Virus record (IMG/VR): IMGVR_UViG_3300010413_002638
Coordinates: 48,805-112,804 of that record
Source of the DNA: a virus
Length of the DNA: 64,000 nt
Strand: one strand, 5' to 3'
Each line of letters starts with the position of its first letter. Position 1 is the first letter of the stretch. The notes under the pieces were generated by a model, which had not been told where the DNA came from, ran no database searches, and saw only the letters and a list, made by a program, of their open reading frames with translations. This document shows, piece after piece, positions 38,671-56,846 of this stretch. A program made the position numbers and the translations under genes.

Positions 38671-39402
38671 ATGCACGAAACTATCAACGAATCAGGAAAT
38701 GTCTACGGCAAATGGATAGTACTATCGAAGTACAAATCCACCACTTCTTCTGCCGCTTGGCTTTGCCGCTGTGAATGCGGGTACGAACGACCAATTCTTG
38801 GCGTCGATCTCCGTCGTAATAAACTGCCGTTGTGTACTAATTGTTGTCGCGTTTGTGGCAAGACCAGGAACGAAACCGAGTTCAAGGGTAATAAACGTAT
38901 CTGTAAAGAATGCGACAAACGGCGAATAAAAGAATGGAAAACGGCTACGAACTATCAGAAGCAATATATGAACCCCTGGCTTAAAAGGAATCCAGAAGCT
39001 GTTGCCAGGCACAAAGAAACAGAACGAGATCGCTTACAGTCAGATCCGTACATTTTCCTTTGTTATAAATTGAAGGATATACGTAGGAAAATCAAGAGAG
39101 CCGATAAAAATCTATCTCTTGGCACTAAACAAAGATCTAGGCTAATTGACCGCGAGGTCACTATAACCGAAGAAGAACTTATCGCTCTTTGGGACAAGCA
39201 GAATGGGTTATGTGCTATTTCTGGTATGCCGATGGCTCACGAGTTCAAGAATCTTCGGTCTGCTAGTATTGATCGGATTGATAGTAGTAAGGGATATGTG
39301 CCTGGGAATGTCCAATTGGTATGTCAGTGGGTGAACTACGCTAAGAATAACCATGCCGACGCGGAAATAAGAGAGGTATTGGCCGAATATGGCAAAGCGT
39401 AG
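38671..39402 (+). CDS. HNH-like (homing) endonuclease
   Basis: YGKWIVL...WLCRCECG N-terminal module; SIDRIDSSKGYVPGNVQLVC...N..KN. Confidence 0.8.
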   Translation: MHETINESGNVYGKWIVLSKYKSTTSSAAWLCRCECGYERPILGVDLRRNKLPLCTNCCRVCGKTRNETEFKGNKRICKECDKRRIKEWKTATNYQKQYMNPWLKRNPEAVARHKETERDRLQSDPYIFLCYKLKDIRRKIKRADKNLSLGTKQRSRLIDREVTITEEELIALWDKQNGLCAISGMPMAHEFKNLRSASIDRIDSSKGYVPGNVQLVCQWVNYAKNNHADAEIREVLAEYGKA

Positions 39403-39682
39403 AAAGCAAAAACGACAGAAGGGTTGGAAACAACCAAAATATCACCAATATATTAAATCAAAGGCTTGGCGCAATAGACGAAAACAAGCATTGATTGCGG
39501 CTAATTTTCGTTGTGAGATATGTGGTAGCACCGAAGACTTGCACGTTCACCATCTTAATTACAAGAGAGTTGGCAGAGAAAAGAAAGAAGATCTACAAGT
39601 ATTATGCGATCAGTGCCACAAAAACGAACATGATATACCAACATTTCTCGATGAGGAGTATGCCGCCATTGTCGGCGATTAG
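39389..39682 (+). CDS. HNH endonuclease
   Basis: CEICG...LHVHH...LCDQCH..EH. Confidence 0.85.
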   Translation: MAKRRKQKRQKGWKQPKYHQYIKSKAWRNRRKQALIAANFRCEICGSTEDLHVHHLNYKRVGREKKEDLQVLCDQCHKNEHDIPTFLDEEYAAIVGD

Positions 39683-39729: not shown

Positions 39730-40374
39730 ATGAGACTTGCCCTCATCAACGAGCGTATCGACTCTTTACACGATCAAAGGGTAAAGACCCTCAAGAATAT
39801 CGCTCCATTTGTAAGAAAAATCGCTGCCAGATTTGTCAATGGCGATAAGGAATATGCTGATCTCAAAAGCGCAAGATATACACCGTCTGATGAAGACGAC
39901 CTCTATCAAGTGGGACTCATGGCTCTCTGGAATTATTTAAGCAAAGTCGAAAGAAAAGAAGACGGTCGCTTGGATGTCAGTTTCAGCCGCGTAAAACAAG
40001 AGATATTTTCTGCTATGGCGCGAGGTGGCAACGCAGAATATCAAGTATTTGGTGATATACCATTCCAGATATCCTCAGACGTGTATAAAAGAGACAAAGA
40101 TTATACCGGTGTTGATCCTACTTATGATGTCTCTGATTTCGCTCAACCTGAAGGCAACAGAAGACATATGTTGGCTTCCAGAGCTGTGGATAACGCCAAT
40201 ATACCAGAGAGAGCTAAGATGGTCTTCCGTAAGCTCTTATCTGGTATGCAACAAGCAGAAGTTGCTCGTGAATTGAACGTCAGCAAAGTTGCTGTTCATA
40301 AGACGGTAAAGAAATATATGCCACAAGTACAGGCTGCTCTAGAAGAGGCGAAAATTGCTAATGCGATTCTATGA
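39730..40374 (+). CDS. sigma-70 family (ECF-like) sigma factor
   Basis: Region 2-like EDDLYQVGLMALW; region 4 HTH QQAEVARELNVSKVAVHK. Confidence 0.75.
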   Translation: MRLALINERIDSLHDQRVKTLKNIAPFVRKIAARFVNGDKEYADLKSARYTPSDEDDLYQVGLMALWNYLSKVERKEDGRLDVSFSRVKQEIFSAMARGGNAEYQVFGDIPFQISSDVYKRDKDYTGVDPTYDVSDFAQPEGNRRHMLASRAVDNANIPERAKMVFRKLLSGMQQAEVARELNVSKVAVHKTVKKYMPQVQAALEEAKIANAIL

Positions 40375-40837
40375 ATTTGGCCAGCCTACCAACACTGTCT
40401 GAAAGGTCTTTGACTTGATTACTAATGGTATACCGGCTATTGCTAAATTGCATACACCAGTAATAGCGTCCATTCCATTGATAGCAGGCAGCACCAGTGT
40501 AGCGGTAATTACCCAACATTATCGAACGATGGCCGCGACTGTTCATCCAACTCTGTATTGCTTCTCCTACTGTGCGTTGGCCGGAGGCGATAATCTCCGC
40601 AGCGCCACTACTGTGAGTGAGAGAGTTGCTCCTGACCATCCACTTAGTGTGGTTGGATGCCCGTAGCATTAGGCCATAATCCGCTTGGACTGGTTGTAAT
40701 CCATATCTGGCCCGTTGAGCATTTGCTTGGTCGATCATCGCCACGAAAGCTGGCTGGTATTTGGTGGCGGCGGTAGCGTTGATCCGTTCATTCATGTTGT
40801 CGGACGCTATGGCCCAGAGAATCAATAGCATACCCAT
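40358..40837 (-). CDS. CAP (SCP-like) domain protein
   Basis: NAQRARYGL, EIIASG, WMNSRGHRSIML and YWCMQF motifs. Confidence 0.88.
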   Translation of the reverse strand: MGMLLILWAIASDNMNERINATAATKYQPAFVAMIDQANAQRARYGLQPVQADYGLMLRASNHTKWMVRSNSLTHSSGAAEIIASGQRTVGEAIQSWMNSRGHRSIMLGNYRYTGAACYQWNGRYYWCMQFSNSRYTISNQVKDLSDSVGRLAKFIESH

Positions 40838-42267: not shown

Positions 42268-43509
42268 TTAGCTAACGGGTGCGAGGCCGTTTAGGTGACA
42301 ATGAATACGGATTTGTTCGTGGCACTGTCCAATTGTTCTGTTGGGGACTCCTAAGAATTCTGCCATGTGGCATTTTCGGGGGTCACCATTTCCATAGATG
42401 TCGCTGAATTCCCGGTAGGTCTGTCCTTGACCGCTCTGAATGTCAAAAACGGCCTTACAGGTACCATCCGGTAAGGCGGCTCGTATTGCCTCCATGACAT
42501 CCCTATTATCTACTACTGCAACATGATCGTCTTGGTCCATTCTAGCTCCCTCAATCGTACGATAACCAATTTGTTTGATGGTAAATCCATTCTCATCAGC
42601 TTCATTTTCCTCCTGAAACATCACGTGCTCTGGCATACTCACGCGCGTGGTCATGCTGCGAGCATTACTATTCTTCAATACGCGAACAGCATTGCTCGTG
42701 GTTTCAATGGCTACCTCCTCCTTCAACGCCCGCTGACGGAGGAGAGCTAGTTCCACCGTGAATTCCGGTGGTGTCAAAAGGCCGACAACATATACTTCGA
42801 AGACTTTCTCGTCATAGTTCTCGGGGTCATAGCGGAAGTCAAGCTTCATCTTCCGGCAGATTGCCAAAAGCTCCTGCAAAATGACTTCGTCCGCCCGAGC
42901 GATAACGGTTCGCGGGGTCTTCCGGTGTTCCGCTCGTTCGTTCTCACGGATTTGTTGGCGAACGTAATTCCAGCCATATTCGCCAAAGAATTTGCTACGT
43001 TGGACCGGATCGTTGATGATCGACATGGGATCATCGTAGAATTTCTCGCCGGTCACATATTTGATGGCCGAACGGCATCGCGGGGGACGTTCATCATCGC
43101 CATATTGGGCAACGATTGCCTGGAACTGCTCATAGGGTAGGAATTGCCCTTTGGTTAGTTCTTCGCTGTCGCCAGGGTCCTTGATCTGAACGTGATCGCA
43201 GTTGGGGCAACGGAGCTGTTGGCGATCGATGGAGGCGACTTTGTTCCGTTTGGTGACGTAGCAGGAGCTACCACAGGCTTGGCAACGGAACTTGTATTTG
43301 CAGTGATAGAAGAGGTTGACGACACCTCGCCATACGGCGATATACCATTCTTGGTCGGCTATGGTGCGGTCGTCCCTGTAATCCCAGCCGATGGTTGCGC
43401 CAAGGCCGCGAATGATGCTGGCACGCTTGGCTTGCATGTCTGGATCGTTGACAATCGCGCGTACGATTTCATCGATTCGAACTCGGTCTTCCTCCGTGAG
43501 ATTCGCCAT
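42268..43509 (-). CDS. divergent sigma-70-like factor with Zn-ribbon insertion
   Basis: ADQEWYIAVWRGV (region 2.2-like), CQAC...CPNC insert, FFGEYGWNYVRQQIR, C-terminal HTH HMAEFLGVPNRTIGQ. Confidence 0.55.
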   Translation of the reverse strand: MANLTEEDRVRIDEIVRAIVNDPDMQAKRASIIRGLGATIGWDYRDDRTIADQEWYIAVWRGVVNLFYHCKYKFRCQACGSSCYVTKRNKVASIDRQQLRCPNCDHVQIKDPGDSEELTKGQFLPYEQFQAIVAQYGDDERPPRCRSAIKYVTGEKFYDDPMSIINDPVQRSKFFGEYGWNYVRQQIRENERAEHRKTPRTVIARADEVILQELLAICRKMKLDFRYDPENYDEKVFEVYVVGLLTPPEFTVELALLRQRALKEEVAIETTSNAVRVLKNSNARSMTTRVSMPEHVMFQEENEADENGFTIKQIGYRTIEGARMDQDDHVAVVDNRDVMEAIRAALPDGTCKAVFDIQSGQGQTYREFSDIYGNGDPRKCHMAEFLGVPNRTIGQCHEQIRIHCHLNGLAPVS

Positions 43510-43684
43510 CGTAATGTTGGCGATACTGCCACGCAGGCACAACTTGGGCAGCTGTCGTTGTAGCGGCATACAAAACTCCTAAACCAACGTTGCACAAAGA
43601 AAAGAGGTATATCTCGTTGATTCGGGAGTTCACCGTATTGGTGAGAACAAGATACACCCCATACACTGTTGCAAAGGAAATACA

Positions 43685-44440
43685 ATGGGTCAATACTGTG
43701 ATAGCCAAAAGCTAGAACATTACTGGTACCATTGGATATTAAGCTCATCCGTGCCAGCTTTGGAAGAATACCGCCGAAGAGGAATACTTTGGACCAAAGT
43801 GATTGGCTTTGCCCAACACGACGGGCAATTGCTACTGTCCAACGGAAAACCATTGCCAGACCCATCTCATCCAACCAGGTTGCATTGTTTGGCATTGGAT
43901 TATCCCCTATTCTTTCGGACAGAGGAAGGAATGCCAACAGCACCTATCTCCAATTTCGGACGGAATTTACGAGAATCGCCCGGTGAGATAAAATTCAAGT
44001 ATAAGAATTTAGCTCGCCGCCAAGCATCTGCGGACGAGGAATTGTTTGCTGAATTGAAGCGACTTGGGTACGCAAAAGAGTACACGACCGACCACAGTTG
44101 GCATAATATGTTGGAGGATATCAGGAATATATGTAATGGTATAGCGATGAAGTTTCGACTTAGCAGCGAAGATGAGCAATTGGACTTAGCGTCCGACGCC
44201 CTTCTCCAGGTCGTAAACAAGCTAGATTCAGGAAGGCTTGTGTACATGCCAGGCCGAGCCCCTGTCTTCAACCTGCTAACCACGACGACTTACAGAATTA
44301 TGTATAGTATTCTGAACAAAAAGAATGGTCAGAAGTATAGCATCCGAAAGCTTATAGATGATGCTGCGGCGGGTGTCTTGCCTGATTCTGGGCGAAGCAT
44401 CCGTGTGCCCACCATCCGATCTCCTATTAGATCACACTAA
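43685..44440 (+). CDS. T4 gp55-like late sigma factor
   Basis: YCDSQKL start; ICNGIAMKF..DLASDALLQVV..APVFNLLTT..YSILNK parallels the gp55 region-2 pattern; no region 4. Confidence 0.55.
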   Translation: MGQYCDSQKLEHYWYHWILSSSVPALEEYRRRGILWTKVIGFAQHDGQLLLSNGKPLPDPSHPTRLHCLALDYPLFFRTEEGMPTAPISNFGRNLRESPGEIKFKYKNLARRQASADEELFAELKRLGYAKEYTTDHSWHNMLEDIRNICNGIAMKFRLSSEDEQLDLASDALLQVVNKLDSGRLVYMPGRAPVFNLLTTTTYRIMYSILNKKNGQKYSIRKLIDDAAAGVLPDSGRSIRVPTIRSPIRSH

Positions 44441-44642: not shown

Positions 44643-44903
44643 ATGTCTACCCAAACCCACAAGGAAGGTCAAGTATCGGAGGAGATCAAGCAAATATTTC
44701 AACAACATCGAGAAGCTATCATCATCACAGTTGACCCCGTTGCAGAATCAGAAGAAACAGCCGTGAACGCTTTCGTCAAAATGCTAGATAAAAATAAAGG
44801 CGGGAAACTGGCCTCCCTGCTGGATAGCATTTTGACCAACCTGAAAGCGACCTATGGCGAAAAACGTGGTGGTATGCCGAGTTCGTCCGCAGCTCATCCG
44901 TAA
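44643..44903 (+). CDS. hypothetical protein
   Basis: AAGGGG RBS; 86 aa. Confidence 0.55.
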   Translation: MSTQTHKEGQVSEEIKQIFQQHREAIIITVDPVAESEETAVNAFVKMLDKNKGGKLASLLDSILTNLKATYGEKRGGMPSSSAAHP

Positions 44904-45789
44904 GCGGACTATCATCAAGACGGTGCCAACTGTCCAGGTCATCGCTAAACCGGCACAGCAGAAAGTCCTAAAACTACAGGATATTCGGCCACCCAGCCCT
45001 CCAATCCCACAGAACTCAGCTGCCGTCGTTCAGCCAAAGAACGTCAAACGCCAGCGGAATATCCGGAAAAAGACCCACGTCCGTTACCAAACTCGCGACC
45101 CACTACCAGGATCACTGGAACGGACTAAGGCTATACAGGGTATGGGTCGTGGTAAGGTCCTCATCATTATTGGCAACGGCCCTTCCATATCAGAAGCGCC
45201 ACTAGACCAATTAGTTGGCGTACCTAATATCGAAATAATGTCAGTCAATCGACCTGACGAACGAATTTGGCCAACTACTTATTGGTCTTTCTTTGACCTC
45301 TCTCAAATGCGACGGCACGAGAAATTGTGGGAGAATTATGAAGGCTATATCTTCAATTCCACAGCTATTCGTCGCCAAAAAGCCAAATCTATTCAATTCA
45401 AGAATATAATGGGCCAAGGTTGGAGTCGAGATCTAACCAAAGGTATCCATATTGGTCGATCTTCTGTCTACGCTTCTATGCAGATAGCTATGTGGATGCA
45501 ATTCGCACATGTTTATGTCTTCGGGTGTGACATGAACCCCGACGGAATAAATGGTCAGTTGCATTTCTATGGTGTGAATCCTGATGTTGAACCCAACATC
45601 AGAGCGCAGCGATTCTTAAAGGAGTCAGAGTTCTACGTTAACGCCGCCGAGGTATTAACGGAAGAAGAACGAGCGAAGTTTACCTTTGCCACTGACTACA
45701 ACCCATGGGATTTTGTACATAAATACAATCAAATGTCGCACAAATCCATGGGTCCCATAATTGAACACGCTGCATCCCTAACACCATGA
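44854..45789 (+). CDS. DUF115/Maf-like protein (GNGPS motif) with basic N-terminal extension
   Basis: IIIGNGPS, SVN, SSVY.SMQIA.WM and VFGCDM motifs. Confidence 0.75.
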   Translation: MAKNVVVCRVRPQLIRKRTIIKTVPTVQVIAKPAQQKVLKLQDIRPPSPPIPQNSAAVVQPKNVKRQRNIRKKTHVRYQTRDPLPGSLERTKAIQGMGRGKVLIIIGNGPSISEAPLDQLVGVPNIEIMSVNRPDERIWPTTYWSFFDLSQMRRHEKLWENYEGYIFNSTAIRRQKAKSIQFKNIMGQGWSRDLTKGIHIGRSSVYASMQIAMWMQFAHVYVFGCDMNPDGINGQLHFYGVNPDVEPNIRAQRFLKESEFYVNAAEVLTEEERAKFTFATDYNPWDFVHKYNQMSHKSMGPIIEHAASLTP

Positions 45790-46319
45790 CAAACAACCAA
45801 TCTGTTCCGCTCGGAAGAGTATATATTGCTTCTAGTCTGCACAACGCCGAGCGAGTAAAACACATCAAACAAAAGCTCGAATCATTGGGCGTAATGGTCA
45901 CTTATGATTGGACCGTGCACGGCCAAGTCTTCGACAAAGAGGAATTGATAAGAATAGCCATAGCAGAGGAACAGGGAGTAAGCGACGCGGACGTGTTCTT
46001 AATGGTATTTCCTGGTCGGACCGGTACGCACGTCGAGTTTGGGCTTGCTCGCGGATTGGGTATTCCGATCGTGCTGTTGGAAGAAGTAGAAGTAGAACAG
46101 AAATCATTTTATTATCTGCCTGGCCTCCATAAGACCCAAACGGAAGAAGAGGCCATCAGAGCAGTGTTGCGTATTTTGCAAGACAAAAATAGCTGGCCAA
46201 GCAGCGTCCCTAAAACCGTGGGTGAAGTGCTGCAACTGGTACCAAAGATCTTAGAATCGCTGAGGAGTGATAATGTCGATTTTCCACAAGCTCGAACTGG
46301 ATGTAATGCAGACCAATGA
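45786..46319 (+). CDS. nucleoside 2-deoxyribosyltransferase / dNMP N-glycosidase family protein
   Basis: VYIASS, GVSDADVFL and GTHVEFGLA (catalytic Glu) motifs. Confidence 0.8.
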   Translation: MTNNQSVPLGRVYIASSLHNAERVKHIKQKLESLGVMVTYDWTVHGQVFDKEELIRIAIAEEQGVSDADVFLMVFPGRTGTHVEFGLARGLGIPIVLLEEVEVEQKSFYYLPGLHKTQTEEEAIRAVLRILQDKNSWPSSVPKTVGEVLQLVPKILESLRSDNVDFPQARTGCNADQ

Positions 46320-46965
46320 ATTGGAAGATGCTGCTAAAATAGCGGTCAAGTATAACTTCCAGGCTATGGTCGTACACCCGCTGATTGTCACCGATGCCAT
46401 TTTCCTACGTGGTCGAACTCAGGGTAGGTATAAGATAATCACACCAGTTGATTGGCCCAAAGGCGAGAACTTTGGTATGGTCAAATTACGTGGTTTGTCC
46501 TCCGACGCCCTGGACGTCGATGGTTTCGAGATATTATTGACCGGCGATAAAACTCTGGTCGAGACCCGCAACGAAGCCAAGGTGTTGACCAATTTCATCA
46601 AGCAACAATTATCAGAATTGGTCGAAGTGCGATTTGTACTTGGCACGTCCCTGCGGACACCGGAAAATGTCGCTCACATGATGGAAGCGTTCAAGGATGT
46701 GAGAATTCCAGCTTATATCCGCAACGACCACCATCTAAAGTTGCAAGTGAGCAAGGCCAACGCCGACACGCATAATGCCTTTATGGACAAATTGTTCGAG
46801 ATATTTCGGGCACCGGTCAAGCTGAGTGGCAATATTAATACTGTCAGAGCGATTACCTCTTGTGATCGTGCACAACGGTTTGCCGTAAATATCAATCAAG
46901 CACGGACAATAATCAAAGAAGTCCACCAGCAACCAGAAGAATTGAAGTCAATTCTAGATGCTTGA
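46273..46965 (+). CDS. deoxyribose-phosphate aldolase (DeoC)-like TIM barrel, divergent
   Basis: KYNFQAMVVHP, ITPVDWPKG, DGFEILL and VKLSGNINT motifs; the Schiff-base Lys position reads YIRND. Confidence 0.6.
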   Translation: MSIFHKLELDVMQTNELEDAAKIAVKYNFQAMVVHPLIVTDAIFLRGRTQGRYKIITPVDWPKGENFGMVKLRGLSSDALDVDGFEILLTGDKTLVETRNEAKVLTNFIKQQLSELVEVRFVLGTSLRTPENVAHMMEAFKDVRIPAYIRNDHHLKLQVSKANADTHNAFMDKLFEIFRAPVKLSGNINTVRAITSCDRAQRFAVNINQARTIIKEVHQQPEELKSILDA

Positions 46966-47302
46966 AGCAATTTGCCCGGAGTGTGGCATAACCAATTCTT
47001 TCGACGAATCACAAGTAATCTACGAATTTGACTTCGTATATGTTCTTTGTTATAATTGCGGTAGCACGATAAAAATACAATGCGAGACAATAATCCCAGG
47101 AAGGTGTTCCGCAGAAATAAGTGCTCCCGTATTAGAAATTGGTGAAATTGTAAAAATAACTAATAGAGAACACGCCTGGTATGACGAAATCGCAATAATC
47201 CGCGCCAAGAAATTCAAGCATTATCGCATCGAAATACACGGTCAATTAATTTGGGTTCCAGAACACTGGGTAATATCCGATGAGCCTGATGACATTGATT
47301 AA
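46958..47302 (+). CDS. Zn-ribbon plus SH3/KOW-like hypothetical protein
   Basis: CPECG...CYNCG; EIGEIVKI. Confidence 0.55.
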   Translation: MLEAICPECGITNSFDESQVIYEFDFVYVLCYNCGSTIKIQCETIIPGRCSAEISAPVLEIGEIVKITNREHAWYDEIAIIRAKKFKHYRIEIHGQLIWVPEHWVISDEPDDID

Positions 47303-47651
47303 CGATCTTGGTGACAACGCCGATCTTCTGGTAAGGAGCGACGCTTGGCTCGAAAATGAGCGTCGATCCACCGCAGCAGAATTAGACCGATGCTGCAACG
47401 AACTGCGAGCCATTCAACTCGCCCAACGGATCAAGCGTGCGCTGCAACAAAAGAATATAGTAGCAGTGCAAGAATTAATCCATGACATAGATGGTAACAT
47501 ACAAGATATAGTAGTAAGAATACTAGATCTGCCCAAGGCTATCCAAAAGCTGAATGGCAAAGTCCCACAAGACACTCTAGACGCCATCAATTCTATGGCC
47601 CAAATCAAGGGCTGGCGGTCCGACGGCTACGACGTCGATCTCTTTCTCTAA
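47280..47651 (+). CDS. hypothetical helical protein
   Basis: 123 aa ORF. Confidence 0.55.
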   Translation: MSLMTLINDLGDNADLLVRSDAWLENERRSTAAELDRCCNELRAIQLAQRIKRALQQKNIVAVQELIHDIDGNIQDIVVRILDLPKAIQKLNGKVPQDTLDAINSMAQIKGWRSDGYDVDLFL

Positions 47652-47752
47652 TCATCGTGCTCACAAGTATCATGTCAGCCACCAGACGTGAATGAGTATT
47701 TAAACGATGATGATCGATTGTCGGTACGGACATCCAAACAGGAGCACAAGAG

Positions 47753-48937
47753 ATGTTGAGGACCAACGAAGTTGGTGGCCGAGTAGTAGTAACCGCTGAT
47801 GGTGGAGCCGGAAGTAGTGGCAAAGGAGCCTTCAACGCCTGGCTCGCTGACAAATATCCATTCGATGTTGCCACCAACAATTGGGCCACTAACGCCGGTC
47901 ACTTCGTAGAATGGATCGACAAAGATGGCAACAGACAACGAGTGCTCAACCAGCACATCTGCTCTGCCTTCGTCAACCCAAACACCGAGCTGCACATCAA
48001 CCCCGGTGCATCCCTCGACATCAAAACACTGTTGGACGAAATCGAGACACTAGAAAATCTCGGCTTCGAGATCAAAGACCGATTGAGTATCCATCCTCTG
48101 GCCAACGTCATTACGGAAGAAGACAAACTACAAGAAAAGGAAATCATCAAGAGCGGCAGTACCTTCAAGGGATGCGGAGCGGCCTTGGCCCGTAAAACAC
48201 TGCGAATTCCAGGACAAAAACTAGCTCGCGATTATGACGAGCTGCGGCCATTCATCGCAGATCGCACTCTTGACGTTCTCAACGCAATCGAAAAGGGTGC
48301 CAAAGTCCTCGTCGAAGGTGCTCAAGGTATCGACCTCGACATCAATTTTGCCGAATTCCCGCACGTCACCAGTCGTCAAACTCATCCAACACAACTCATG
48401 GCCGACGCCGGGCTCCCTTGTCAAGCTGTTACCAACACCATCATCAACCTGCGGACCAATCCTATCCGTATCAGCAACGTATCAGCGGCCAACGAAAATG
48501 AGCTGTGCTATACCGGCAATTACTGGGACGCCAAGGAAATCACCTGGGAAATCGTGGCAGAAAGAGCCGGATATGCCACATTCGAAGAATTCGTGAAGGA
48601 ATACGAATTTGCTATGATGACCTCGGTGACCAAAAAAGTCAGGCGAATCTTCGAATTCCCCAAGGTCCGTATGGAATTCCTGCATGCCCTGGTCGGCGGA
48701 AACCTGCCAGACAGCAGCGTTCTTTACAGCCTGAACTTCATGAATTTCATCGACCGAACGGTACGCGGCGTCAAGACCGAAGAAGAACTACTGACAGAAA
48801 AAGTTCGGGATTGGTTGCATACGAACCTCTCCGCCTCGGTGAGAAGCAAGTTGCGCTGGATTAGAACCGGTCCAGAACACACCGAAATCGTGGAACTTGT
48901 CGATTTCGCAGCCAAAGAAGCCAGCGTTCCAGTCTAG
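47753..48937 (+). CDS. purZ: adenylosuccinate synthetase family, PurZ-type (2-amino-dAMP pathway)
   Basis: GSSGKG (Ser at the PurA catalytic Asp of GDEGKG), NAGH, EGAQG, TSR, RTNPIRI, TSVTKKVRR, and NFMN in place of PurA TKLD. Confidence 0.8.
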   Translation: MLRTNEVGGRVVVTADGGAGSSGKGAFNAWLADKYPFDVATNNWATNAGHFVEWIDKDGNRQRVLNQHICSAFVNPNTELHINPGASLDIKTLLDEIETLENLGFEIKDRLSIHPLANVITEEDKLQEKEIIKSGSTFKGCGAALARKTLRIPGQKLARDYDELRPFIADRTLDVLNAIEKGAKVLVEGAQGIDLDINFAEFPHVTSRQTHPTQLMADAGLPCQAVTNTIINLRTNPIRISNVSAANENELCYTGNYWDAKEITWEIVAERAGYATFEEFVKEYEFAMMTSVTKKVRRIFEFPKVRMEFLHALVGGNLPDSSVLYSLNFMNFIDRTVRGVKTEEELLTEKVRDWLHTNLSASVRSKLRWIRTGPEHTEIVELVDFAAKEASVPV

Positions 48938-48968
48938 GCTTCCAGGTACGTAGACCTGGAGAAAACCT

Positions 48969-49769
48969 ATGATCGAAAATCTCAAGGTCGCTGCGTATCT
49001 AGAAGACGCCGGTGAAGATCCGGCGTCAGCTTGCAAGACCATCAAGGATGCCGGTATAAACTATGTCATAATCCGGCATGTTTGGACATCCAATATCAAG
49101 GATTTATCGGATAGCGGCTGCGTCAAACTGCGCAAGATAATGTCCGATAACGGCGTAGCACCCGCCGCCATCTTATCCACAATAAGTGATGTTCCCGCCT
49201 CGGATTTGCCCAAAATAGATGACAAAACCGTAGACAGAACATTTAATCTTGCCAAATATTTTGGCGTGCCCATGATAGGGCTCACATGTGGTCTCAAGAC
49301 GGCTAATCAAGCTGATAAACAAATTGACCAATGGCTATACCGAATCACTAGCCAGGCCGCTTCTCTCAACATCAATTGTCTGATCGAGACGACCACCAAA
49401 AGCCACATATATGCTGCTGGTGAACTAGCTATGCTGTTAACCAAACACAAAACAATCAAATTAATATACGACCCAGCTCAACTTATCATTAGACAAAACA
49501 TCGATCCATTCATAAAATATTGGACTTTATTGAAGCAGTATGTCCGCGCCATCGATGTGCGCGACTACAAGATCGGACGTGGCTTCAAGCCAGCAGGACA
49601 CGGTGATACACACATTATCCGAACAGCGATGGATGCGATCAATTCAAATTATAATGGGTGGTTCTTTTTTGAGCCGTCTTTGGGCCGAAAACACGGTACT
49701 GCACAATCCAAAAGCGATGTTTTCAAAATGGCATTCACAGCCTTTAAGGACGCTCTTGGTCAAAGTTAA
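48969..49769 (+). CDS. xylose isomerase-like TIM barrel (sugar phosphate isomerase/AP endonuclease 2 superfamily)
   Basis: LIE, LIYDPAQ, AIDVRD, PAGHGD and YNGWFFFEP motifs. Confidence 0.75.
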   Translation: MIENLKVAAYLEDAGEDPASACKTIKDAGINYVIIRHVWTSNIKDLSDSGCVKLRKIMSDNGVAPAAILSTISDVPASDLPKIDDKTVDRTFNLAKYFGVPMIGLTCGLKTANQADKQIDQWLYRITSQAASLNINCLIETTTKSHIYAAGELAMLLTKHKTIKLIYDPAQLIIRQNIDPFIKYWTLLKQYVRAIDVRDYKIGRGFKPAGHGDTHIIRTAMDAINSNYNGWFFFEPSLGRKHGTAQSKSDVFKMAFTAFKDALGQS

Positions 49770-49780
49770 AGGGGATAATT

Positions 49781-49993
49781 ATGCCGATCAATTTCAATGA
49801 GACTATCCAACGGATCAAGCAAGCTGGCTCTACGGGTGTCCGCTCCGTCCCCATGCCCAATCAACCGATCGATGGTGACTACCAGATCGAAATTCTGACA
49901 GAGGGCAACTGGACACCGCTCGTCACCGGTATCAATAAAAAGACAGCCGAAGACATTATTAGCCAAGCCACAAACCGAGTGATCCTTGGATGA
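49781..49993 (+). CDS. small hypothetical protein
   Basis: AGGGG RBS; 70 aa. Confidence 0.65.
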   Translation: MPINFNETIQRIKQAGSTGVRSVPMPNQPIDGDYQIEILTEGNWTPLVTGINKKTAEDIISQATNRVILG

Positions 49994-50418
49994 AACGGAA
50001 AGTCACCTCCGTACTAGAATTGGCACGGTATAAAGTAGGCACAGTGGCCTACTGGTTGGCACTACGTACCAACGCTCCCGTGCCAGATCTAAGAGAGGAA
50101 GACGTCTGGCTAACCAACGTACACCCAAAACAACTATACAAAGGACCATACAAGAAACTCTGGCCGACTCACGCCAAACTACCAAAGCTACATCACGTAG
50201 ATTTCAACACTCTCGTGACAGTACTCGTATCAGAACTCTGCGTAGAAGAATTTCGAGTTGTCGAAATAATCAGAAGCAACGACACCGGAGAATTCTTCTA
50301 CAGCAACGAAGATGACGAATGGATGCCAGAAACTAATCTGTTCGACACCGTGACAGCAGCCCGCAAAGAACGATCACGCATCCTCGGCATGATACGCAAA
50401 TGGGCCAAAGACAATTAA
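49990..50418 (+). CDS. hypothetical protein
   Basis: Coupled start. Confidence 0.65.
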   Translation: MKRKVTSVLELARYKVGTVAYWLALRTNAPVPDLREEDVWLTNVHPKQLYKGPYKKLWPTHAKLPKLHHVDFNTLVTVLVSELCVEEFRVVEIIRSNDTGEFFYSNEDDEWMPETNLFDTVTAARKERSRILGMIRKWAKDN

Positions 50419-50960
50419 AGCTTTCTAGCCATAATCATGCCCACACTATCCGGCTTCGTCAGATACGCCTCGATCTGCCATTCTGACGAACTCTCCAAGT
50501 AAGGCCGCAATAATTTCGCCTTCACCGAGAACACACCGGCTTCTCGCACGTCCATATCCCAATCATGCATCCCATAGATAGCACCCTGTCGTAAGCGGGG
50601 TGCTATTAACAAGAAATCATTAAGATTAAGTTCCGGCTCTTCTGGCCCGTCGTTGAATACAAAATCCGGGATGATATTAGTACCCAACAAATGATTAATC
50701 ATATCTGTTGAAGCCATATAATGACACTCAACAATGTTTCGCCACGCACCTGAATAAATCCCCCTAGCCTCTTCGTAGAAGACCCGGTTCGTTTCACACG
50801 TGTATAGCTTGCCAGCCCCCAATTGTCGTAGTGCCGTTGCTATTTGATAAGTTGAACCACCACCTTTCCAGGTACCGATTTCTAATACTACTTGCGGCTT
50901 GACGCGCAAGACAGTATCAAAGAGCAACTTGCGTTCTGCGGGATATAATTGACCTTCCAT
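50415..50960 (-). CDS. class I SAM-dependent methyltransferase
   Basis: VLEIGTWKGGGST, DFVFNDG and MHD motifs. Confidence 0.85.
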   Translation of the reverse strand: MEGQLYPAERKLLFDTVLRVKPQVVLEIGTWKGGGSTYQIATALRQLGAGKLYTCETNRVFYEEARGIYSGAWRNIVECHYMASTDMINHLLGTNIIPDFVFNDGPEEPELNLNDFLLIAPRLRQGAIYGMHDWDMDVREAGVFSVKAKLLRPYLESSSEWQIEAYLTKPDSVGMIMARKL

Positions 50961-51673
50961 TATTGCCTCTTCGCGATAAAATATCCGTCGTTCTCATACA
51001 ATATCTCCATACCACTCTTGAACTCGTTCAGTACAACGGACTTTACTCGAATTGGGTGGCCCACATCGTACAAATTATCGATGTTTAGATCATCGTAAGT
51101 TCGCTCACCCATGATGATCAAGCCGCCAGGCCGTAGAGCTAATTTAATATTTCGCAACACTGCGGCCACATCACGAACGTGCTCAAGCACATTGATGCAG
51201 ATTATCGTATCGAACTCTTCCAACCGTCGCAAATTCTCTGCCGGAAGCGGAACAAGACGAGGACTTGGTCGTAAATTCCAGTAAGCACAGTTGGGATGAT
51301 GCTTATAGTGCTCAATGAGTGGATCAGCTAACGTTATAGAACGTGCTGTATGTCCTTTCGACAGGATGAATCTTGTCTGTGTAAACGGGCCGCAACCAAC
51401 TTCTAGTATATCGCCTAGATTATCCGGTAAGACGTGGTAATCATTAAAGAGTGCTGCGTGTTCTGTGTCGCGATCAGATGATGCGTCTCTGGCATGCTGC
51501 AACCAAGTAGCTAATTCATACGCTTGCGCTTTCTTCCAGCGTTCATCGTCTACTTTGACGATACCATTCGTGTCGTTCCAATACTTAGCATCACTCTCTG
51601 CTCGCAGAGCATCTGTAGCGTCTTGTCCGCGTCGTACGTCAACTGGTGAACCGATCCAAATAGGATTATCCAT
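50960..51673 (-). CDS. class I SAM-dependent methyltransferase
   Basis: ILEVGCGP, FDTIICINVLEHV and LRPGG motifs. Confidence 0.9.
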   Translation of the reverse strand: MDNPIWIGSPVDVRRGQDATDALRAESDAKYWNDTNGIVKVDDERWKKAQAYELATWLQHARDASSDRDTEHAALFNDYHVLPDNLGDILEVGCGPFTQTRFILSKGHTARSITLADPLIEHYKHHPNCAYWNLRPSPRLVPLPAENLRRLEEFDTIICINVLEHVRDVAAVLRNIKLALRPGGLIIMGERTYDDLNIDNLYDVGHPIRVKSVVLNEFKSGMEILYENDGYFIAKRQ

Positions 51674-51711
51674 TTTTACCTCTCTACGGATATATAATTT
51701 GGAGTCTAATC

Positions 51712-51990
51712 ATGAACCAAGGCTGTATGCGATTAGGCGGGATGACGCCCGCTGAATGTTGTTATGATTTACCAACGACATTTCACATATCAAAGATCTT
51801 GGAATCTGAAAATTTGCTGACATTCTTTTGTAATCATAACGACTTCACGGGCAAAGAGCTAGTATGGGAGTCTAAAGAATCGATTAGGATAGATGGCAGA
51901 TCGATCCCGCTTCATTGTTCCCCATCTTATCGTACCAGCTGGTGTACTTTCACTATACGGCCTCTGACTCTGTTCGAGGACAACATATGA
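51712..51990 (+). CDS. hypothetical protein
   Basis: GGAG RBS; stop coupled to the next start. Confidence 0.45.
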   Translation: MNQGCMRLGGMTPAECCYDLPTTFHISKILESENLLTFFCNHNDFTGKELVWESKESIRIDGRSIPLHCSPSYRTSWCTFTIRPLTLFEDNI

Positions 51991-52613
51991 GATCAGCGAT
52001 AATATTAAGCGGCCAACTAAGAAATTTTGACGAATGCTACCCATCACTCAAAGAGCATATTCTCGACCACAATGATTGCCATATCTACATGCACACCTAT
52101 CTGGACACCGAGCCAGAAAAACTGCAACAAGCGATATCTTTGTATCAACCACAAAAACTGTTACTAGAACAACCAGAAAAAGATTTCTCCATTTGTGAAC
52201 AGTGTGGACCAGACAGAGAACCAATGTACTGGATGTGGCGAAACGTGCGGGTCGCTTTCTGTTTGATCCCCGAGTATTACGAATGCATCGTCAAAGCACG
52301 TTATGACTTGAAGTACACACAACCAATTGTCTTTGCAGACCATGATATGGCCGCTATAAACATACCCTCTGGTGGTAACTTCCTGAACGGCATTAATGAT
52401 CTTTTCGCGTTTGGCTCCCCCACAAACATGGAATATTATTGTTCCATGATCGACGTAATCGACCAATATGTCTCAGAAGAAGGAATTACATGCCATCCAG
52501 AAACGTTGCTTAGGCATCATCTTCGCGACAAACAAGTAGACAGGCCAGTGTTTCCTATTATTCTCCGCGACGTTATTATGACGGACCACTATCCCAATGA
52601 CAACCCAAATTAA
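51987..52613 (+). CDS. putative glycosyltransferase-like protein (SGQLR...RYD...ND.FAFG family)
   Basis: AIILSGQLR, KARYD, NDLFAFGS and HPETLL motifs. Confidence 0.65.
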   Translation: MRSAIILSGQLRNFDECYPSLKEHILDHNDCHIYMHTYLDTEPEKLQQAISLYQPQKLLLEQPEKDFSICEQCGPDREPMYWMWRNVRVAFCLIPEYYECIVKARYDLKYTQPIVFADHDMAAINIPSGGNFLNGINDLFAFGSPTNMEYYCSMIDVIDQYVSEEGITCHPETLLRHHLRDKQVDRPVFPIILRDVIMTDHYPNDNPN

Positions 52614-53142
52614 AATGATCGTCTTAGACGTAGACGGCGTAATGACCGACGGTAAGAAGTACTACGACCGGAAAGGTGCAGTAGTCGTCAAGTCCTTCTG
52701 CGACAAAGATTGGACTGCTATCAAAAGGTTTCGTGCGATCGGCATCAACGTCGTCTGCATTACCGGAGACGGATTTAATGCCGCAATCCTCGCCAATCGA
52801 AACATCCCAGTAATCATTTGCCGCACCGACAATGCTCATACTGACAAATCCAACTACCTGGCTGGCATCATTGAAGAATATGATTGCACTTATGACGAAG
52901 TCTGCGTAGTCGGCGACGATCTATTTGATCTAAAGCTGATGATGATGGTTAAGCATCGTTTCTGTCTGCTAGATTCGCCATCTGTGGTTAAGCAATACTG
53001 CGACGTGCTTGGATGCAAAGGTGGAGAAAATGCGATCGCTGTCTTGTTTGATCGCTTAGAAGGATTTGAATTAATTCCTAAGGTTCCCTGGCAAGAAGCC
53101 ATGGACAAGATTTATGAAATAGATGCCAAAGAAAGATTCTGA
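52597..53142 (+). CDS. KdsC-like HAD phosphatase
   Basis: LDVDGVMTDG, ITGD, VGDDLFD and KGGE motifs. Confidence 0.85.
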   Translation: MTTQIKMIVLDVDGVMTDGKKYYDRKGAVVVKSFCDKDWTAIKRFRAIGINVVCITGDGFNAAILANRNIPVIICRTDNAHTDKSNYLAGIIEEYDCTYDEVCVVGDDLFDLKLMMMVKHRFCLLDSPSVVKQYCDVLGCKGGENAIAVLFDRLEGFELIPKVPWQEAMDKIYEIDAKERF

Positions 53143-53807
53143 TGCTGCTGCACGACGGCACATGCGCGATCATAATAAGTGGTTATTTGCGAGATTTCGT
53201 AAAATACTTCCCGTCATTCAAGGAGTGTATTCTCGACCACAACAACTGTCATATTTATATGCAAATATATGCCTCCGAATTGGACAGAATACAAAAAGCA
53301 GTACAACTATACAAGCCACAAAGGATATTGGTAGAAGAACCCATAAAAGACTTCGTTTTTGAAGGAGAATGGAATACCTATACAAACCGAGAGGGATATT
53401 ATTGGCAATGTAAGAATCTGAAGACTGCGTTCGGGCTAGTACCAGATTATTACCCCTGCGTAGTTCGAACACGATACGATTTGAAATATACCTCACCAAT
53501 AAAGTTCCTGAGTTTTAACCTACACCACATACATATCCCAGCCCATAGGATAGGATTATATGGTTACCAAGGAAATGGCATCACAGATGTTTTTGCATTT
53601 TCTTCCTACGAAAACATGCGATATTATACTTCTCTCTATGATTATATCAATCATTACGTGAAACAAGGGGTGGAATGCACACCCGAAGTGCTACTGATGC
53701 ATCATTTAAGAGACAAATCTTTAGTTAGACCAATTTTTCCCATCTTTCTGAGAGACATGTGTATGACCACGCCGCACGGTCATCACGAATTTTTGGTGGT
53801 AACATGA
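53142..53807 (+). CDS. paralog of 51987-52613 (glycosyltransferase-like)
   Basis: IISGYLR, RTRYDLKY, TDVFAF and PEVLL motifs. Confidence 0.65.
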   Translation: MLLHDGTCAIIISGYLRDFVKYFPSFKECILDHNNCHIYMQIYASELDRIQKAVQLYKPQRILVEEPIKDFVFEGEWNTYTNREGYYWQCKNLKTAFGLVPDYYPCVVRTRYDLKYTSPIKFLSFNLHHIHIPAHRIGLYGYQGNGITDVFAFSSYENMRYYTSLYDYINHYVKQGVECTPEVLLMHHLRDKSLVRPIFPIFLRDMCMTTPHGHHEFLVVT

Positions 53808-54961
53808 AGAAATACAATCTCGTACTCCCGATCTCCGGCAGAGCCCAACGCTTTATCGATGCTGGCTACAAAATGCCCAAACCACTCATTCTGGTCAAGG
53901 ACAAGCACGTCATCGACTTGGCGCTGGAATCAATGGACATCTCGGATTGTAATTTAATCTTCATAGTGAGACTCGACCACATCTATGATTTCAGTATCGA
54001 TCAGATACTAAAACAGAAGTACGGAGATGATATAACTATAGTCGTAGTTGATAGGATAACCAGAGGTGCACTTGAAACCTGCACCCTTGCTGCTGAGCAT
54101 ATCAACAATGACATCCCACTCATCATTTACACGCCAGATGTCAGCTTTTTCCCGCAATTCAACCCCAACGCTATCAGCGAAGAAGCCGATGGATTTCTAC
54201 TAACTTTCGCCGCCAATAGCCCTTCTCACAGCTATTCTGTGATTAATGACGGCATTGTATCCAAAGTGGCCGAGAAAGAAGTAATTTCCAATGACGCCAA
54301 TGTTGGCATTTATCATTTCAAATCTGGAAGCCTATTCCTGAAATATGCTAACGTTATGCTCGAGCAGAACATAACGGCTAAAAATGAATTCTATATTGCC
54401 CCAATTTACAATCTGATGATAGCCGATGGCTTGATGGTAAAAGCATTCGGCGTCGAAAAAATGTACGTTCTTGGCACGCCAGACTCATTCCAATTCTTCT
54501 GCAACCATATCATGCGAAAGCCATTCGACAAGCCAATCGCCCTAGCAGCAGATCATTCCGGATACGCTCAAAAAGAATCTACCAAAAGATTAATGGATAA
54601 AGATGGTATTCAATATATTGACGTCGGCACTTATGTCAACAAGTCCTGTGATTATGTTGATTATCTTAGTCAATCTGTGGCCCTCATCAGAGACAATCAT
54701 TGCAACTTTGCGATATCGTTCTGTCGATCTGGACAAGGAATGAACATTGCGGCAAACAAACATGATGGAATTATCTCAGCTCTCGTATTCGACGCACATA
54801 GTGCCGAATATGCTATCCGCCATAACTGTTGTAATCACTTCGCAATACCCGCCAGAAACAGCAACGCATTTCTCATGGCGGAAGTACTAGAAATGCTGAA
54901 GAAGCATTCGTTCGAAGGCGGAAGACACTACACGAGACTACAAAAGTTCTTATGTTTATAG
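53804..54961 (+). CDS. fusion of a sugar-phosphate nucleotidyltransferase and an RpiB/LacAB isomerase
   Basis: ISGRAQRF..PKPLI and EFYIAP motifs; C-terminal AADHSG, CRSGQGMNIAANK, HN and FEGGRH. Confidence 0.88.
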   Translation: MKKYNLVLPISGRAQRFIDAGYKMPKPLILVKDKHVIDLALESMDISDCNLIFIVRLDHIYDFSIDQILKQKYGDDITIVVVDRITRGALETCTLAAEHINNDIPLIIYTPDVSFFPQFNPNAISEEADGFLLTFAANSPSHSYSVINDGIVSKVAEKEVISNDANVGIYHFKSGSLFLKYANVMLEQNITAKNEFYIAPIYNLMIADGLMVKAFGVEKMYVLGTPDSFQFFCNHIMRKPFDKPIALAADHSGYAQKESTKRLMDKDGIQYIDVGTYVNKSCDYVDYLSQSVALIRDNHCNFAISFCRSGQGMNIAANKHDGIISALVFDAHSAEYAIRHNCCNHFAIPARNSNAFLMAEVLEMLKKHSFEGGRHYTRLQKFLCL

Positions 54962-55557
54962 ATCACCAGCAGAAGTTCCTCTTCGTAGCAGTCCCGAAGA
55001 CGGCAAGCGGGTCAGTCCATTTTTATTTCAACCAGCCGCCGCTCTACGATGGCTTCCATGTCTATTTCATGGAAAAGTATCATTACCCATATCGGTGGAT
55101 TCTAACCGACCATCCAGAAGCTGCTGATTATTTCAGTTTCGGGTTCACCAGAAATCCGTGGGACAGAATGGTATCATCTTGGTTTGATTTCACCAATAGC
55201 CAAGGACATAGAAAGATATGGAGCGAAAGGCTAACATTATACAAAGACTTCCAACAATTCATAATGGAATTCCCGAATAGCGAATGGGCACAAGAGATCC
55301 ATTTCCAACCGGCATCCTGGTACTTAGGGCATGGAACAGAACAGGTTGATTTCACAGGCCGGTACGAAAGCATCGATGAAGACTTCGGACACATCCTACG
55401 GAAACTAGGCAGGCCAGAATTCGCCCTCACAAGCAAACAAAAGCTTAGAAAATCGGCCAGAAACGCCGATTATCACCAATATTACACCAATGAAATGATA
55501 GAGATAGTCGGGAACCATTTTCATGATGACATTGTCAACTTCGGATATCAATACTAA
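54952..55557 (+). CDS. sulfotransferase family 2
   Basis: VPKTASGS, RNPWDRMVS, HFQP and GRYE motifs. Confidence 0.88.
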   Translation: MFIDHQQKFLFVAVPKTASGSVHFYFNQPPLYDGFHVYFMEKYHYPYRWILTDHPEAADYFSFGFTRNPWDRMVSSWFDFTNSQGHRKIWSERLTLYKDFQQFIMEFPNSEWAQEIHFQPASWYLGHGTEQVDFTGRYESIDEDFGHILRKLGRPEFALTSKQKLRKSARNADYHQYYTNEMIEIVGNHFHDDIVNFGYQY

Positions 55558-56371
55558 TGCCTGTATTCTACTATCGCATGTCTTCATACAACCAAACGAA
55601 CTACACAAAAGACAAATAGTCGAATTGGCCGCTAAGCACTATCGCTTGCACAATCCCGATAGCTATCTTATCCTAACCGGCCATGGATTAATGCCATCAC
55701 CGGCAACAGTAGAGCTTTGCGATTTCGTTTACTGGGATACAAAAATCGATCGGCGAGAAATAGGCGTCGGACATCCCAAATTAGTCAATGTCGGTATCAA
55801 ACACGCAATGGAGAAAGGGTATAAGTGGTTATTTAAATGCCGAGCGGATGGCGTTATTCTTCGTTCTGGCATTCTCACCTATTGCCACCAATTGCTGGAA
55901 AATAAGCAAATTCTGCTAACCCAACAAACAGAGTTTGCCAGACCTCGTGCTGGCGATTTGTTCATGTATGGCCCCATAGATTTTCTGCAACAGTGCTGGG
56001 ATATTACAACGTGGTATCCAACAGACACTGGCCTCACCAGCTTCGCCAAGAATATTATGCTAACTACGGGTGAGACAGATTGGGTCCGATGCCTATTGGG
56101 CCATGCAGCGTTCGTTGATATTTATAACATCAAATGGATTGACTTGTATTACAACTGGAATACATTACACCAAAGAAGCGCTGATATTCTTAAGAATCAG
56201 CTAGATGACTTCGAGAAATATTTATGGGGCACGAAAGAAGGTGCTCACACTTTCGACGCTACTGGGGATATGACAGCGTATATCGGCCCCATTATTTGTG
56301 AAAAAGATTGGCGAAAGAGGTTGAATGAAAATCATAGCACATCGCGGAAACTTGATGGGTCCAAATCATGA
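55523..56371 (+). CDS. putative glycosyltransferase-like protein
   Basis: FKCRAD motif; lies inside the glycan cluster. Confidence 0.5.
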   Translation: MMTLSTSDINTNACILLSHVFIQPNELHKRQIVELAAKHYRLHNPDSYLILTGHGLMPSPATVELCDFVYWDTKIDRREIGVGHPKLVNVGIKHAMEKGYKWLFKCRADGVILRSGILTYCHQLLENKQILLTQQTEFARPRAGDLFMYGPIDFLQQCWDITTWYPTDTGLTSFAKNIMLTTGETDWVRCLLGHAAFVDIYNIKWIDLYYNWNTLHQRSADILKNQLDDFEKYLWGTKEGAHTFDATGDMTAYIGPIICEKDWRKRLNENHSTSRKLDGSKS

Positions 56372-56846
56372 GGCCGAAAACACAACCAACGCTATCGATG
56401 ATTGCATTGGCAGAGGCTACGACGTCGAAATAGACGTTTACGTTTCAGCAGGCACGATCTGGCTGGGGCATGATAACCGACATAACCAGGTCGAGTTAGA
56501 ATATTTGCTCGCTCGCAAAGACAAATTGTGGGTGCATGCGAAGAATATCGTCGCGGCAGAATTGTTATCTGATACAGATCTCCACTGGTTTTGGCATGAT
56601 CGAGATGCAATGACTATAACCAGCAAGGGTGTTATTTGGTGCCACTACGCTTTTATCAAGAATGGTATTACTATACTCCATACTGCCAGAGAAATAGATC
56701 ATCTTAAACCTAATATAAATGGCATCGTGCCAAACATAGGTGGTATCTGCACAGATTATCCAACGCTGGCGAGGTTGGTAATAAATGAAAATATCCGGCC
56801 TGACAATAATCAGAAATGCGTTCACGAACGGATACCCTATCGCTGA
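56325..56846 (+). CDS. glycerophosphodiester phosphodiesterase-like protein
   Basis: IAHRGN, EN, DVEIDV, LGHD, HAKN and GICTDY motifs. Confidence 0.85.
   Translation: MKIIAHRGNLMGPNHEAENTTNAIDDCIGRGYDVEIDVYVSAGTIWLGHDNRHNQVELEYLLARKDKLWVHAKNIVAAELLSDTDLHWFWHDRDAMTITSKGVIWCHYAFIKNGITILHTAREIDHLKPNINGIVPNIGGICTDYPTLARLVINENIRPDNNQKCVHERIPYR

Follow-up and report, generated by a model that had tools for sequence, protein, structure and literature searches.

How a phage that encodes a PurZ synthetase might control its nucleotide pool when neither DatZ nor MazZ accompanies it is the question raised by the locus described here. We analysed a single linear IMG/VR virus contig of 112,804 bp (IMGVR_UViG_3300010413_002638), whose final 64 kb constitute the stretch under study, hereafter called the window. 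The completeness of the contig was 32% according to CheckV, which makes it a fragment of a phage genome of roughly 350 kb, and statements on the absence of genes from the source genome must therefore rest on more complete relatives (see below). Four genes at 45786-49769 encode a protein of the NDT (N-deoxyribosyltransferase) superfamily, a DeoC-like or DERA-like protein, PurZ and a further TIM barrel. They had been picked out by an earlier sequence-only reading of the window, and the listing of open reading frames (ORFs) together with family scans confirmed their positions and their common orientation on the positive strand. Two small genes not mentioned in that reading lie between the DeoC-like gene and purZ, and the unit extends to position 50418. 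The module formed by these genes is real, conserved and functionally coherent, and is best read as a third solution to pool control in phages whose genomes contain 2-aminoadenine (Z): the NDT protein and the DERA-fold protein coupled to it would act in place of DatZ and MazZ, a reading to which we assign a probability of about 45%.

PurZ and the genes linked to it

The PurZ protein (394 amino acids, encoded at 47753-48937, positive strand) is of the 2-aminoadenylosuccinate synthetase type. It matched phrog_1211 (E 9e-43) and PF00709 (E 2e-25), and its best PDB match was the PurZ of phage phiVC8 (6fko, E 7e-28). Ser21, within the motif GSSGKG, stands in place of Asp13 of PurA, and Ser was found at this position in 85 of 85 aligned homologues, as in all 147 phage PurZ proteins surveyed previously (NAR 2026, PMC12884076). 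In characterized PurZ, F12 and T262 accommodate the 2-amino group, whereas F295 and Y298 stack on the base of the nucleoside triphosphate (NTP) (bioRxiv 10.1101/2025.10.22.683976). T290, F329 and F332 of the window protein correspond to T262, F295 and Y298, the last with Phe for Tyr, and the NTP-site motif reads LNFMNF versus LNFxNY in known PurZ. Among the homologues Thr occupied the T262 position in 84 of 85, and the motif LNFxN[YF] was kept as well. The counterparts of W252, Y244 and P233 were also retained. The sole deviation was Ala19 at the position of F12, common to the window, locus L004 and the lineage of L059-62. With the purZ-datZ-mazZ(-dpoZ) cluster of phages phiVC8, S-2L and SH-Ab 15497, the window shares the Ser-for-Asp PurZ, the same NTP-site motif and the location in a region of replication and nucleotide metabolism. 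The huge-phage clade to which the window belongs very probably writes Z into its DNA. It is very unlikely that this PurZ-like enzyme yields something different from the dZ precursor, or supports only partial substitution by Z, with the module devoted to a different purine modification. The PurZ type of the window and L004, with its long branch, its Ala for F12 and its two insertions, would fit such an alternative, but every other PurZ-specific and catalytic residue is retained, and S-2L has been described as lacking a selective polymerase (PMC8065100). In another locus, L006, the PurZ and MptE-like frames (L006:13378-15750 and L006:7899-9947) were about double length (790 and 682 amino acids) with the homology split in two, which suggests inteins or inserted homing elements.

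Relatives of the locus were gathered with the NDT and DERA-like families, PurZ and an MptE-like protein encoded just upstream as the four queries. The gene order sigma-like (negative strand), sigma-like (positive strand), MptE-like, NDT, DERA-like, zn114, p123, PurZ, barrel, p70, p142 was found in about 25 contigs of huge phages (for the small genes, see below). The flanks of this block were variable, with Rad50-like and helicase genes syntenic farther upstream. Within the unit the genes are tightly packed: between 44854 and 47651 successive genes overlap by 4 to about 50 nucleotides, p142 (start at 49990) likewise overlaps the gene before it, and the remaining intergenic gaps measure 11-101 nucleotides. 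A nucleotide search with 44800-50500 gave no match among GenBank phages, and a scan of the operon for promoters and terminators gave nothing exceeding the shuffled background.

Synteny inside one clade is weak evidence by itself, and the rearrangements consequently weigh most. Four were found. L004, a 9-kb contig with portal and Nudix genes, carried a divergent NDT gene, the DERA-like gene, a dCMP deaminase gene, a purZ whose product was 60% identical to that of the window, and zn114. In contig 3300010885_055964 the block was broken: the DERA-like, zn114, p123, PurZ, barrel and p142 genes were relocated together, the sigma-like and MptE-like genes had not moved, and the NDT gene lay about 7 kb away. 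In the complete genome G006 (370 kb, with terminal repeats), purZ was 175 kb from the block, and the genome retained the NDT and DERA-like genes. Conservation of the gene order, which the sequence-only reading had proposed as a check, was thus found in many relatives, and the linkage survives rearrangement. The fourth rearrangement concerns purZ itself. That of the window was 61-64% identical to those of L059-62 and 31-34% to those of L005, L007 and L008, whereas its neighbours showed the opposite pattern (47-64% versus 29-46%), from which it follows that the purZ allele was replaced in place by that of another lineage.

These observations bear on the idea that the gene order is merely inherited synteny of one clade with no functional meaning, the two barrels serving the sugar or glycosylation chemistry of the genome. 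The block does contain sigma-like, MptE-like and small genes as well, the Rad50-like and helicase genes upstream are syntenic too, sugar-modifying genes lie directly downstream, and no member of the clade without purZ was found, so that the phyletic test has no contrast. We nevertheless consider this highly improbable: NDT, DERA-like and PurZ genes occur together in L004 outside the block of the clade, the block of the rearranged contig breaks exactly between MptE and the remainder, and purZ was exchanged in place for a distant allele.

The NDT-superfamily protein and the two barrels

The NDT protein, encoded at 45786-46319 on the positive strand, has 177 amino acids, with a core of about 130 and a C-terminal tail, and matched PF05014 (E 4e-7, 30.6 bits versus a cut-off of 28.8). 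Its family is tight, with member proteins of about 130 amino acids. The catalytic Glu was said to be retained in the sequence-only reading, and it is: E84, together with Tyr Y13, was invariant in 60 of 60 distinct homologues, as were G80 and A88, and the motif YDWTxHG was nearly invariant. Compared with the PDB, the family profile matched 15 sequences of the NDT superfamily (E 7e-7 to 3e-3). The closest were the CMP N-glycosidases 4jen, BlsM (5vto) and MilB (4jem), with E values of 7e-7 to 1e-4, followed by true NDTs; the nearest solved relatives are therefore nucleotide glycosidases, not nucleoside glycosidases. MilB, BlsM, 4jen and DNPH1/Rcl, the best matches among solved structures, have the nucleophile motif P-x-x-G-T/S-H-V-E-x-G in common with the phage protein. 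MilB and BlsM belong to antibiotic pathways and have ribonucleotides as substrates, whereas the phage NDT has a Tyr associated with deoxy-substrates and its own nearly invariant YDWTxHG. In the study of DmtZ (PMC12884076), the Tyr/Glu pair was linked to covalent catalysis and to the exclusion of ribo-substrates. The NDT protein is predicted on these grounds to be a 2'-deoxynucleoside 5'-monophosphate N-glycosidase.

The DERA-like protein (232 amino acids) is encoded at 46267-46965 on the positive strand, its likely start being the ATG at 46273, and the gene overlaps the stop of the NDT gene by about 50 nucleotides. It gave no Pfam match and no PDB sequence match at E values up to 10. An AlphaFold model built with 13 homologues (pLDDT 82, pTM 0.81) showed a TIM barrel of the DERA/DeoC fold: only DERA/DeoC structures were among the matches listed by Foldseek (best 50), with an E value of 4e-10 and TM scores up to 0.73. 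In an hhalign alignment with Escherichia coli DeoC, which was statistically weak and agreed with the strand order of the model, D85 corresponded to D102, R152 to the Schiff-base lysine K167 and K185 to K201, and the FPxG strand and the phosphate loop were in register. R152 lies on strand 6 of the model. The earlier designation as DeoC-like was consequently right as to the fold; by sequence the protein does not belong to the DeoC family, and the position of the canonical Schiff-base lysine holds Arg.

This DERA-like family is closed: a full HMMER pass over 1.84 billion representatives returned 218 representatives (clusters). Residues were counted in 135 full-length members, i.e., 134 representatives and the window protein. 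Position 152 was Arg in 128 and Lys in 6, position 185 was Lys in 124, D85 was kept in 122 and K73 was invariant. The six members with Lys152 all lacked Lys at 185, where five had a hydrophobic residue and one Thr. The family therefore shares with DERA/DeoC the fold, the residues corresponding to D102 and K201, the FP-x-G strand and the phosphate loop, and differs from it in sequence and at the K167 position; judged by its residues, it is not a canonical DERA. The covariation of positions 152 and 185 suggests that the catalytic lysine belongs to strand 7 in the majority of the family and to strand 6 in the remaining few, with the active-site geometry deduced solely from alignments and DSSP. 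Among the contigs found in IMG/VR, the DERA-like gene was confined to those holding purZ, save one contig that ended before the position of purZ. Since NDT homologues also occur in phages free of purZ (see below), the DERA-like gene is the purZ-specific partner of the pair.

The second barrel, of 266 amino acids, is encoded at 48969-49769 on the positive strand, directly after purZ. It matched PF01261 (E 3e-10, 40.5 bits versus a cut-off of 31.1), and its model had a pLDDT of 86. Among the matches listed by Foldseek (best 50) were 4ovx, D-tagatose/psicose 3-epimerases, UlaE (3cqj, TM 0.78) and Art22, with an E value of 1.5e-11 and TM scores of 0.72-0.78, so that the modelled fold appears nearest to ketose and ketose-phosphate 3-epimerases. 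The protein had been presented as having a xylose-isomerase or AP-endonuclease fold. The first holds; the fold is unlike endonuclease IV, and the apurinic/apyrimidinic endonuclease reading was rejected, the matches listed (best 50) being sugar epimerases and isomerases. The metal site of the xylose-isomerase-like family consists of Glu-Asp-His-Glu. Relatives of the barrel conserved E140, D168-P169, R198-D199, K201 and several glycines of the subsequent glycine-rich loop. E140 and D168 were invariant, the His of DxxH was replaced by Gln, and the final Glu (E235) was not conserved, the ligands being assigned by motif and not by superposition. The metal-ligand set, as predicted in this way, appears incomplete. 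Relative to ketose 3-epimerases and UlaE, the barrel thus shares the family and the fold, and differs in its apparently partial metal set and in its phage nucleotide context.

Helper enzymes and the case for adenine exclusion

A census of 80 PurZ loci, taking 10 kb on each side, recorded the DERA-like gene in 18, DatZ in 27, MazZ in 17 and a DutZ-like (Dut-family) gene in 7. All 18 DERA-like loci had an NDT-like gene nearby, adjacent in nearly all of them, and none contained datZ or mazZ. A second NDT subtype, detected by iterated search and blank with the first NDT profile, adjoined the DERA-like gene in L004, L077, L090, L155 and L163. The sequence-only reading had asked whether NDT and datZ exclude each other in genomes with purZ. 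The DERA-like/NDT pair and DatZ occurred together in 0 of the 80 loci (DERA-like versus DatZ, Fisher p 4e-4, not corrected for relatedness), and in the PurZ tree the bearers of DatZ and of the module occupied separate parts, the module carriers falling into two clades. Exclusion does not extend to every NDT-like sequence: a weak NDT-like ORF (L102:9610-10008, E 2e-4, iterated search) lies directly upstream of purZ in a locus that carries DatZ, so that outside the huge-phage clade the exclusion between NDT and DatZ is not strict. The case of L102 agrees with the reported co-occurrence of NDT and DatZ.

DatZ was also sought beyond the neighbourhood of purZ. A tblastn search with the DatZ of two phages found none in the 112.8-kb contig (32% complete), and no homologue of DatZ or MazZ was present in the near-complete relatives G001 (408 kb) and G002 (354 kb) or in the complete G006. 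The canonical datZ elsewhere in the genome, whose presence would have spoken against the earlier proposal, was accordingly found neither in the contig nor in these relatives, from which we infer its absence from the source genome. HD, HD_3 and YfbR-like families gave no match above their cut-offs in G001 and G002. The HD, MazG and dUTPase Pfam families were not found in the contig either, a result that is uninformative at 32% completeness. The module thus differs from the classical Z cluster, having neither DatZ nor MazZ in the contig, G001, G002 and G006 and no HD-family gene in the contig, G001 and G002. With MazZ as the tblastn query, the contig gave one match (E 0.027, about 35837-36016, negative strand), which was discarded as spurious after direct comparison and searches of Pfam and PHROGs. 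The relatives G001, G002 and G003 had two dUTPase-family genes each. The second of these genes, together with the single dUTPase-family match of G005, which is of this type, corresponds to L040-L043; its product had all the trimeric Dut motifs and an insertion of about 40 amino acids near the N-terminus. It is a candidate for the dATP/dGTP-hydrolysing role of DutZ, offered as a lead only.

The idea that an NDT-family enzyme acts on 2'-deoxyadenosine 5'-monophosphate (dAMP) in PurZ phages is already published. DmtZ, of the NDT family, is a dAMP-specific N-glycosidase and phosphodeoxyribosyl transferase of PurZ0 phages (PMC12884076) and forms a system with DutZ and PurZ0 in the actinophages Ghobes and Wayne (Poubanne et al., NAR 2026, PMC12884076), and NDT-M2 is a dA-preferring NDT from dZ-enriched metagenomes (bioRxiv 10.1101/2025.10.22.683976). 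The NDT part of the module is therefore a new member of a known theme. The partner set, i.e., the DERA-like protein and the epimerase-like barrel, is the new part and comprises new families; literature searches on PurZ with aldolases or with jumbo phages turned up no account of the module. For comparison we took Ghobes gp53 as DmtZ because it fits all the residue numbers of PMC12884076; gp51 was dropped. The DmtZ system and the module are alike in pairing a PurZ-type synthetase with an NDT-superfamily enzyme instead of DatZ, in the catalytic Tyr/Glu and in what would be removal of dAMP at the monophosphate level. They are unlike in that the module has no adjacent Dut-like gene and has the DERA-fold partner and the epimerase-like barrel, in the third residue of the triad, which appears to be Glu (E61 in 53 of 60 homologues) where DmtZ has Asn, the alignment to N77 of DmtZ being approximate, and in their hosts, which are 45-kb siphophages for DmtZ and phages of 230-410 kb for the module.

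The pathway that we propose is inferred as regards its substrate, the direction in which it runs and the presence of Z in the DNA. PurZ would condense dGMP with aspartate, and PurB and kinases of the host would complete dZTP; these steps are established for the PurZ family and are carried over here from the conserved residues. The translationally coupled NDT/DERA-like pair would be kept in place of the dATPase DatZ and of MazZ. The NDT enzyme would cleave a 2'-deoxynucleoside 5'-monophosphate, most likely dAMP by analogy with DmtZ, to the free base and deoxyribose 5-phosphate; the DERA-fold barrel would bind or cleave the released sugar phosphate, making the reaction irreversible, and the epimerase-like barrel would be a further sugar-phosphate enzyme. 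A bolder version, which we hold to be doubtful, is a demolition line of three enzymes, namely a dAMP N-glycosidase, a DERA-derived aldolase with its catalytic lysine shifted to strand 7 from strand 6, and a metal-poor barrel like a ketose-phosphate epimerase, which would replace DatZ and MazZ entirely and return the deoxyribose carbon to host metabolism.

The exclusion of adenine, as first put forward for this locus, draws support from the linkage, from the mutual exclusion of the pair and DatZ, from the lack of DatZ and MazZ in G001, G002 and G006 and from the retained Tyr and Glu. Several findings weigh against it. The nearest solved enzymes to the NDT protein cleave CMP or hydroxymethyl-CMP (hmCMP). 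The adenine-reading D12 of DmtZ aligns with H19, a variable position (H, E, S, K or D) among the 60 homologues, so that D12 has no conserved counterpart. By sequence, the NDT protein and DmtZ are related at the superfamily level only: BLAST and profile searches for orthology gave nothing significant, and hhalign aligned 59 columns with an E value of 0.028 and a probability of 1.8%, a short stretch that takes in the WTxHG motif and the nucleophile. The base specificity of the NDT protein is not readable from its sequence, and its homologues (31-45% identity) also occur in phages free of purZ, beside methylases, ThyX and replication genes. The module carriers all fall within one broad phage clade, and shared ancestry consequently inflates the count of exclusive loci. 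With Arg in place of the Schiff-base lysine, aldol cleavage by the DERA-like protein is not assured. The proposal that the NDT protein could deplete dATP in the place of DatZ is not supported in this form: the loss of dAMP through a glycosidase does not of itself remove dATP, and no dATP-hydrolysing enzyme was identified in the contig (32% complete).

Two other functions have to be weighed against pool control by adenine exclusion. The pair might act elsewhere in the pool, on dCMP, dUMP or a modified pyrimidine nucleotide for example, or clear host deoxynucleoside monophosphates (dNMPs) in general, and lie near purZ only because both belong with nucleotide metabolism. The CMP/hmCMP N-glycosidases as best solved relatives, the dCMP deaminase gene between the DERA-like gene and purZ in L004, and the homologues beside ThyX and DNA methylases in purZ-free phages are all consistent with this. 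We consider it unlikely, given the confinement of the DERA-like gene in IMG/VR to purZ contigs (with the one truncated exception), the exclusion between the pair and DatZ, and Tyr13, which predicts deoxy-substrates, unlike MilB and BlsM. Alternatively, the NDT protein might be mainly a phosphodeoxyribosyl transferase that passes the deoxyribose 5-phosphate of dAMP, or of some other dNMP, to free Z base, a salvage of dZMP in which the DERA-like protein would not be a catabolic partner. DmtZ has exactly this second activity (PMC12884076), WTxHG is common to both proteins in the only stretch that can be aligned, and the Arg at the Schiff-base position speaks against a simple DERA catabolism. Such a transferase would, however, have to be supplied with free Z base. 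The nearest solved relatives of the NDT protein are hydrolases, and its close coupling to a DERA-fold partner that has a phosphate loop better suits the release of free sugar phosphate; we regard the transferase reading as quite unlikely.

Neighbouring genes and the proposed place of the module among Z-genome phages

The remaining genes of the block are mostly small. The gene zn114 (46958-47302, positive strand; 114 amino acids) encodes a zinc ribbon and a C-terminal beta domain conserved in relatives and in L004; it travels with purZ, coming after it in L004. It is followed by p123 (47280-47651, positive strand), encoding a small helical protein of 123 amino acids with no family match, which lies directly upstream of purZ throughout the clade. 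Downstream of the barrel, p70 (49781-49993, positive strand) and p142 (49990-50418, positive strand) encode proteins of 70 and 142 amino acids, both conserved in relatives; p142 is the downstream end of the unit that travels with purZ, and a search of the ESM Atlas with its product gave only scores below 0.85. At the other end, the MptE-like gene (44854-45789, positive strand) encodes a PF01973-like protein of 311 amino acids with a basic N-terminal tail, and its stop overlaps the NDT start by 4 nucleotides. Its PF01973 matches were weak but consistent (E 8e-4 to 2e-5 in the window and three relatives, all below the cut-off). It is probably a syntenic neighbour outside the nucleotide unit.

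In all relatives the block was headed by a divergent gene pair, located in the window at 42268-43569 (negative strand) and 43685-44440 (positive strand) and encoding proteins of 433 and 251 amino acids with no Pfam match. By eye, the former combined a zinc ribbon with a C-terminal helix-turn-helix resembling sigma region 4, and the latter had a stretch resembling sigma region 2. Farther upstream were found a DEAD_2/XPD-type helicase gene (32679-34460) and an SMC/Rad50-like ATPase gene (36211-38040), both syntenic with the block in relatives, and a calcineurin-like phosphoesterase gene (30487-31581, negative strand), possibly Mre11-like. Homing endonuclease genes of the Endonuclease VII/HNH type (38671-39402 and 39389-39682) occupied the variable stretch that separates the conserved Rad50-like/p181 genes from the block; a weak match to sigma region 4 (39730-40374) and a CAP-domain protein (40358-40837, negative strand) were also noted. 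Directly downstream of the unit, at 50415-57573, lies a sugar-modification set: two methyltransferases (negative strand), DUF7796, a HAD hydrolase, a nucleotidyltransferase-RpiB fusion, a sulfotransferase and a GT2 glycosyltransferase.

Phages with Z-DNA serve as a model for the viral rewriting of genome chemistry, and enzymes for producing Z-DNA can be drawn from them. The two sets of helpers known until now are DatZ/MazZ and DutZ/DmtZ/DUF5664. If the reading of pool control proposed here is true, the module would be the third, and the first in phages of 230-410 kb, and it would add two new enzyme families with directly testable chemistry. The DERA-like family, with its exchange of Lys and Arg from one strand to the next, would furthermore offer a clean natural case of active-site migration.

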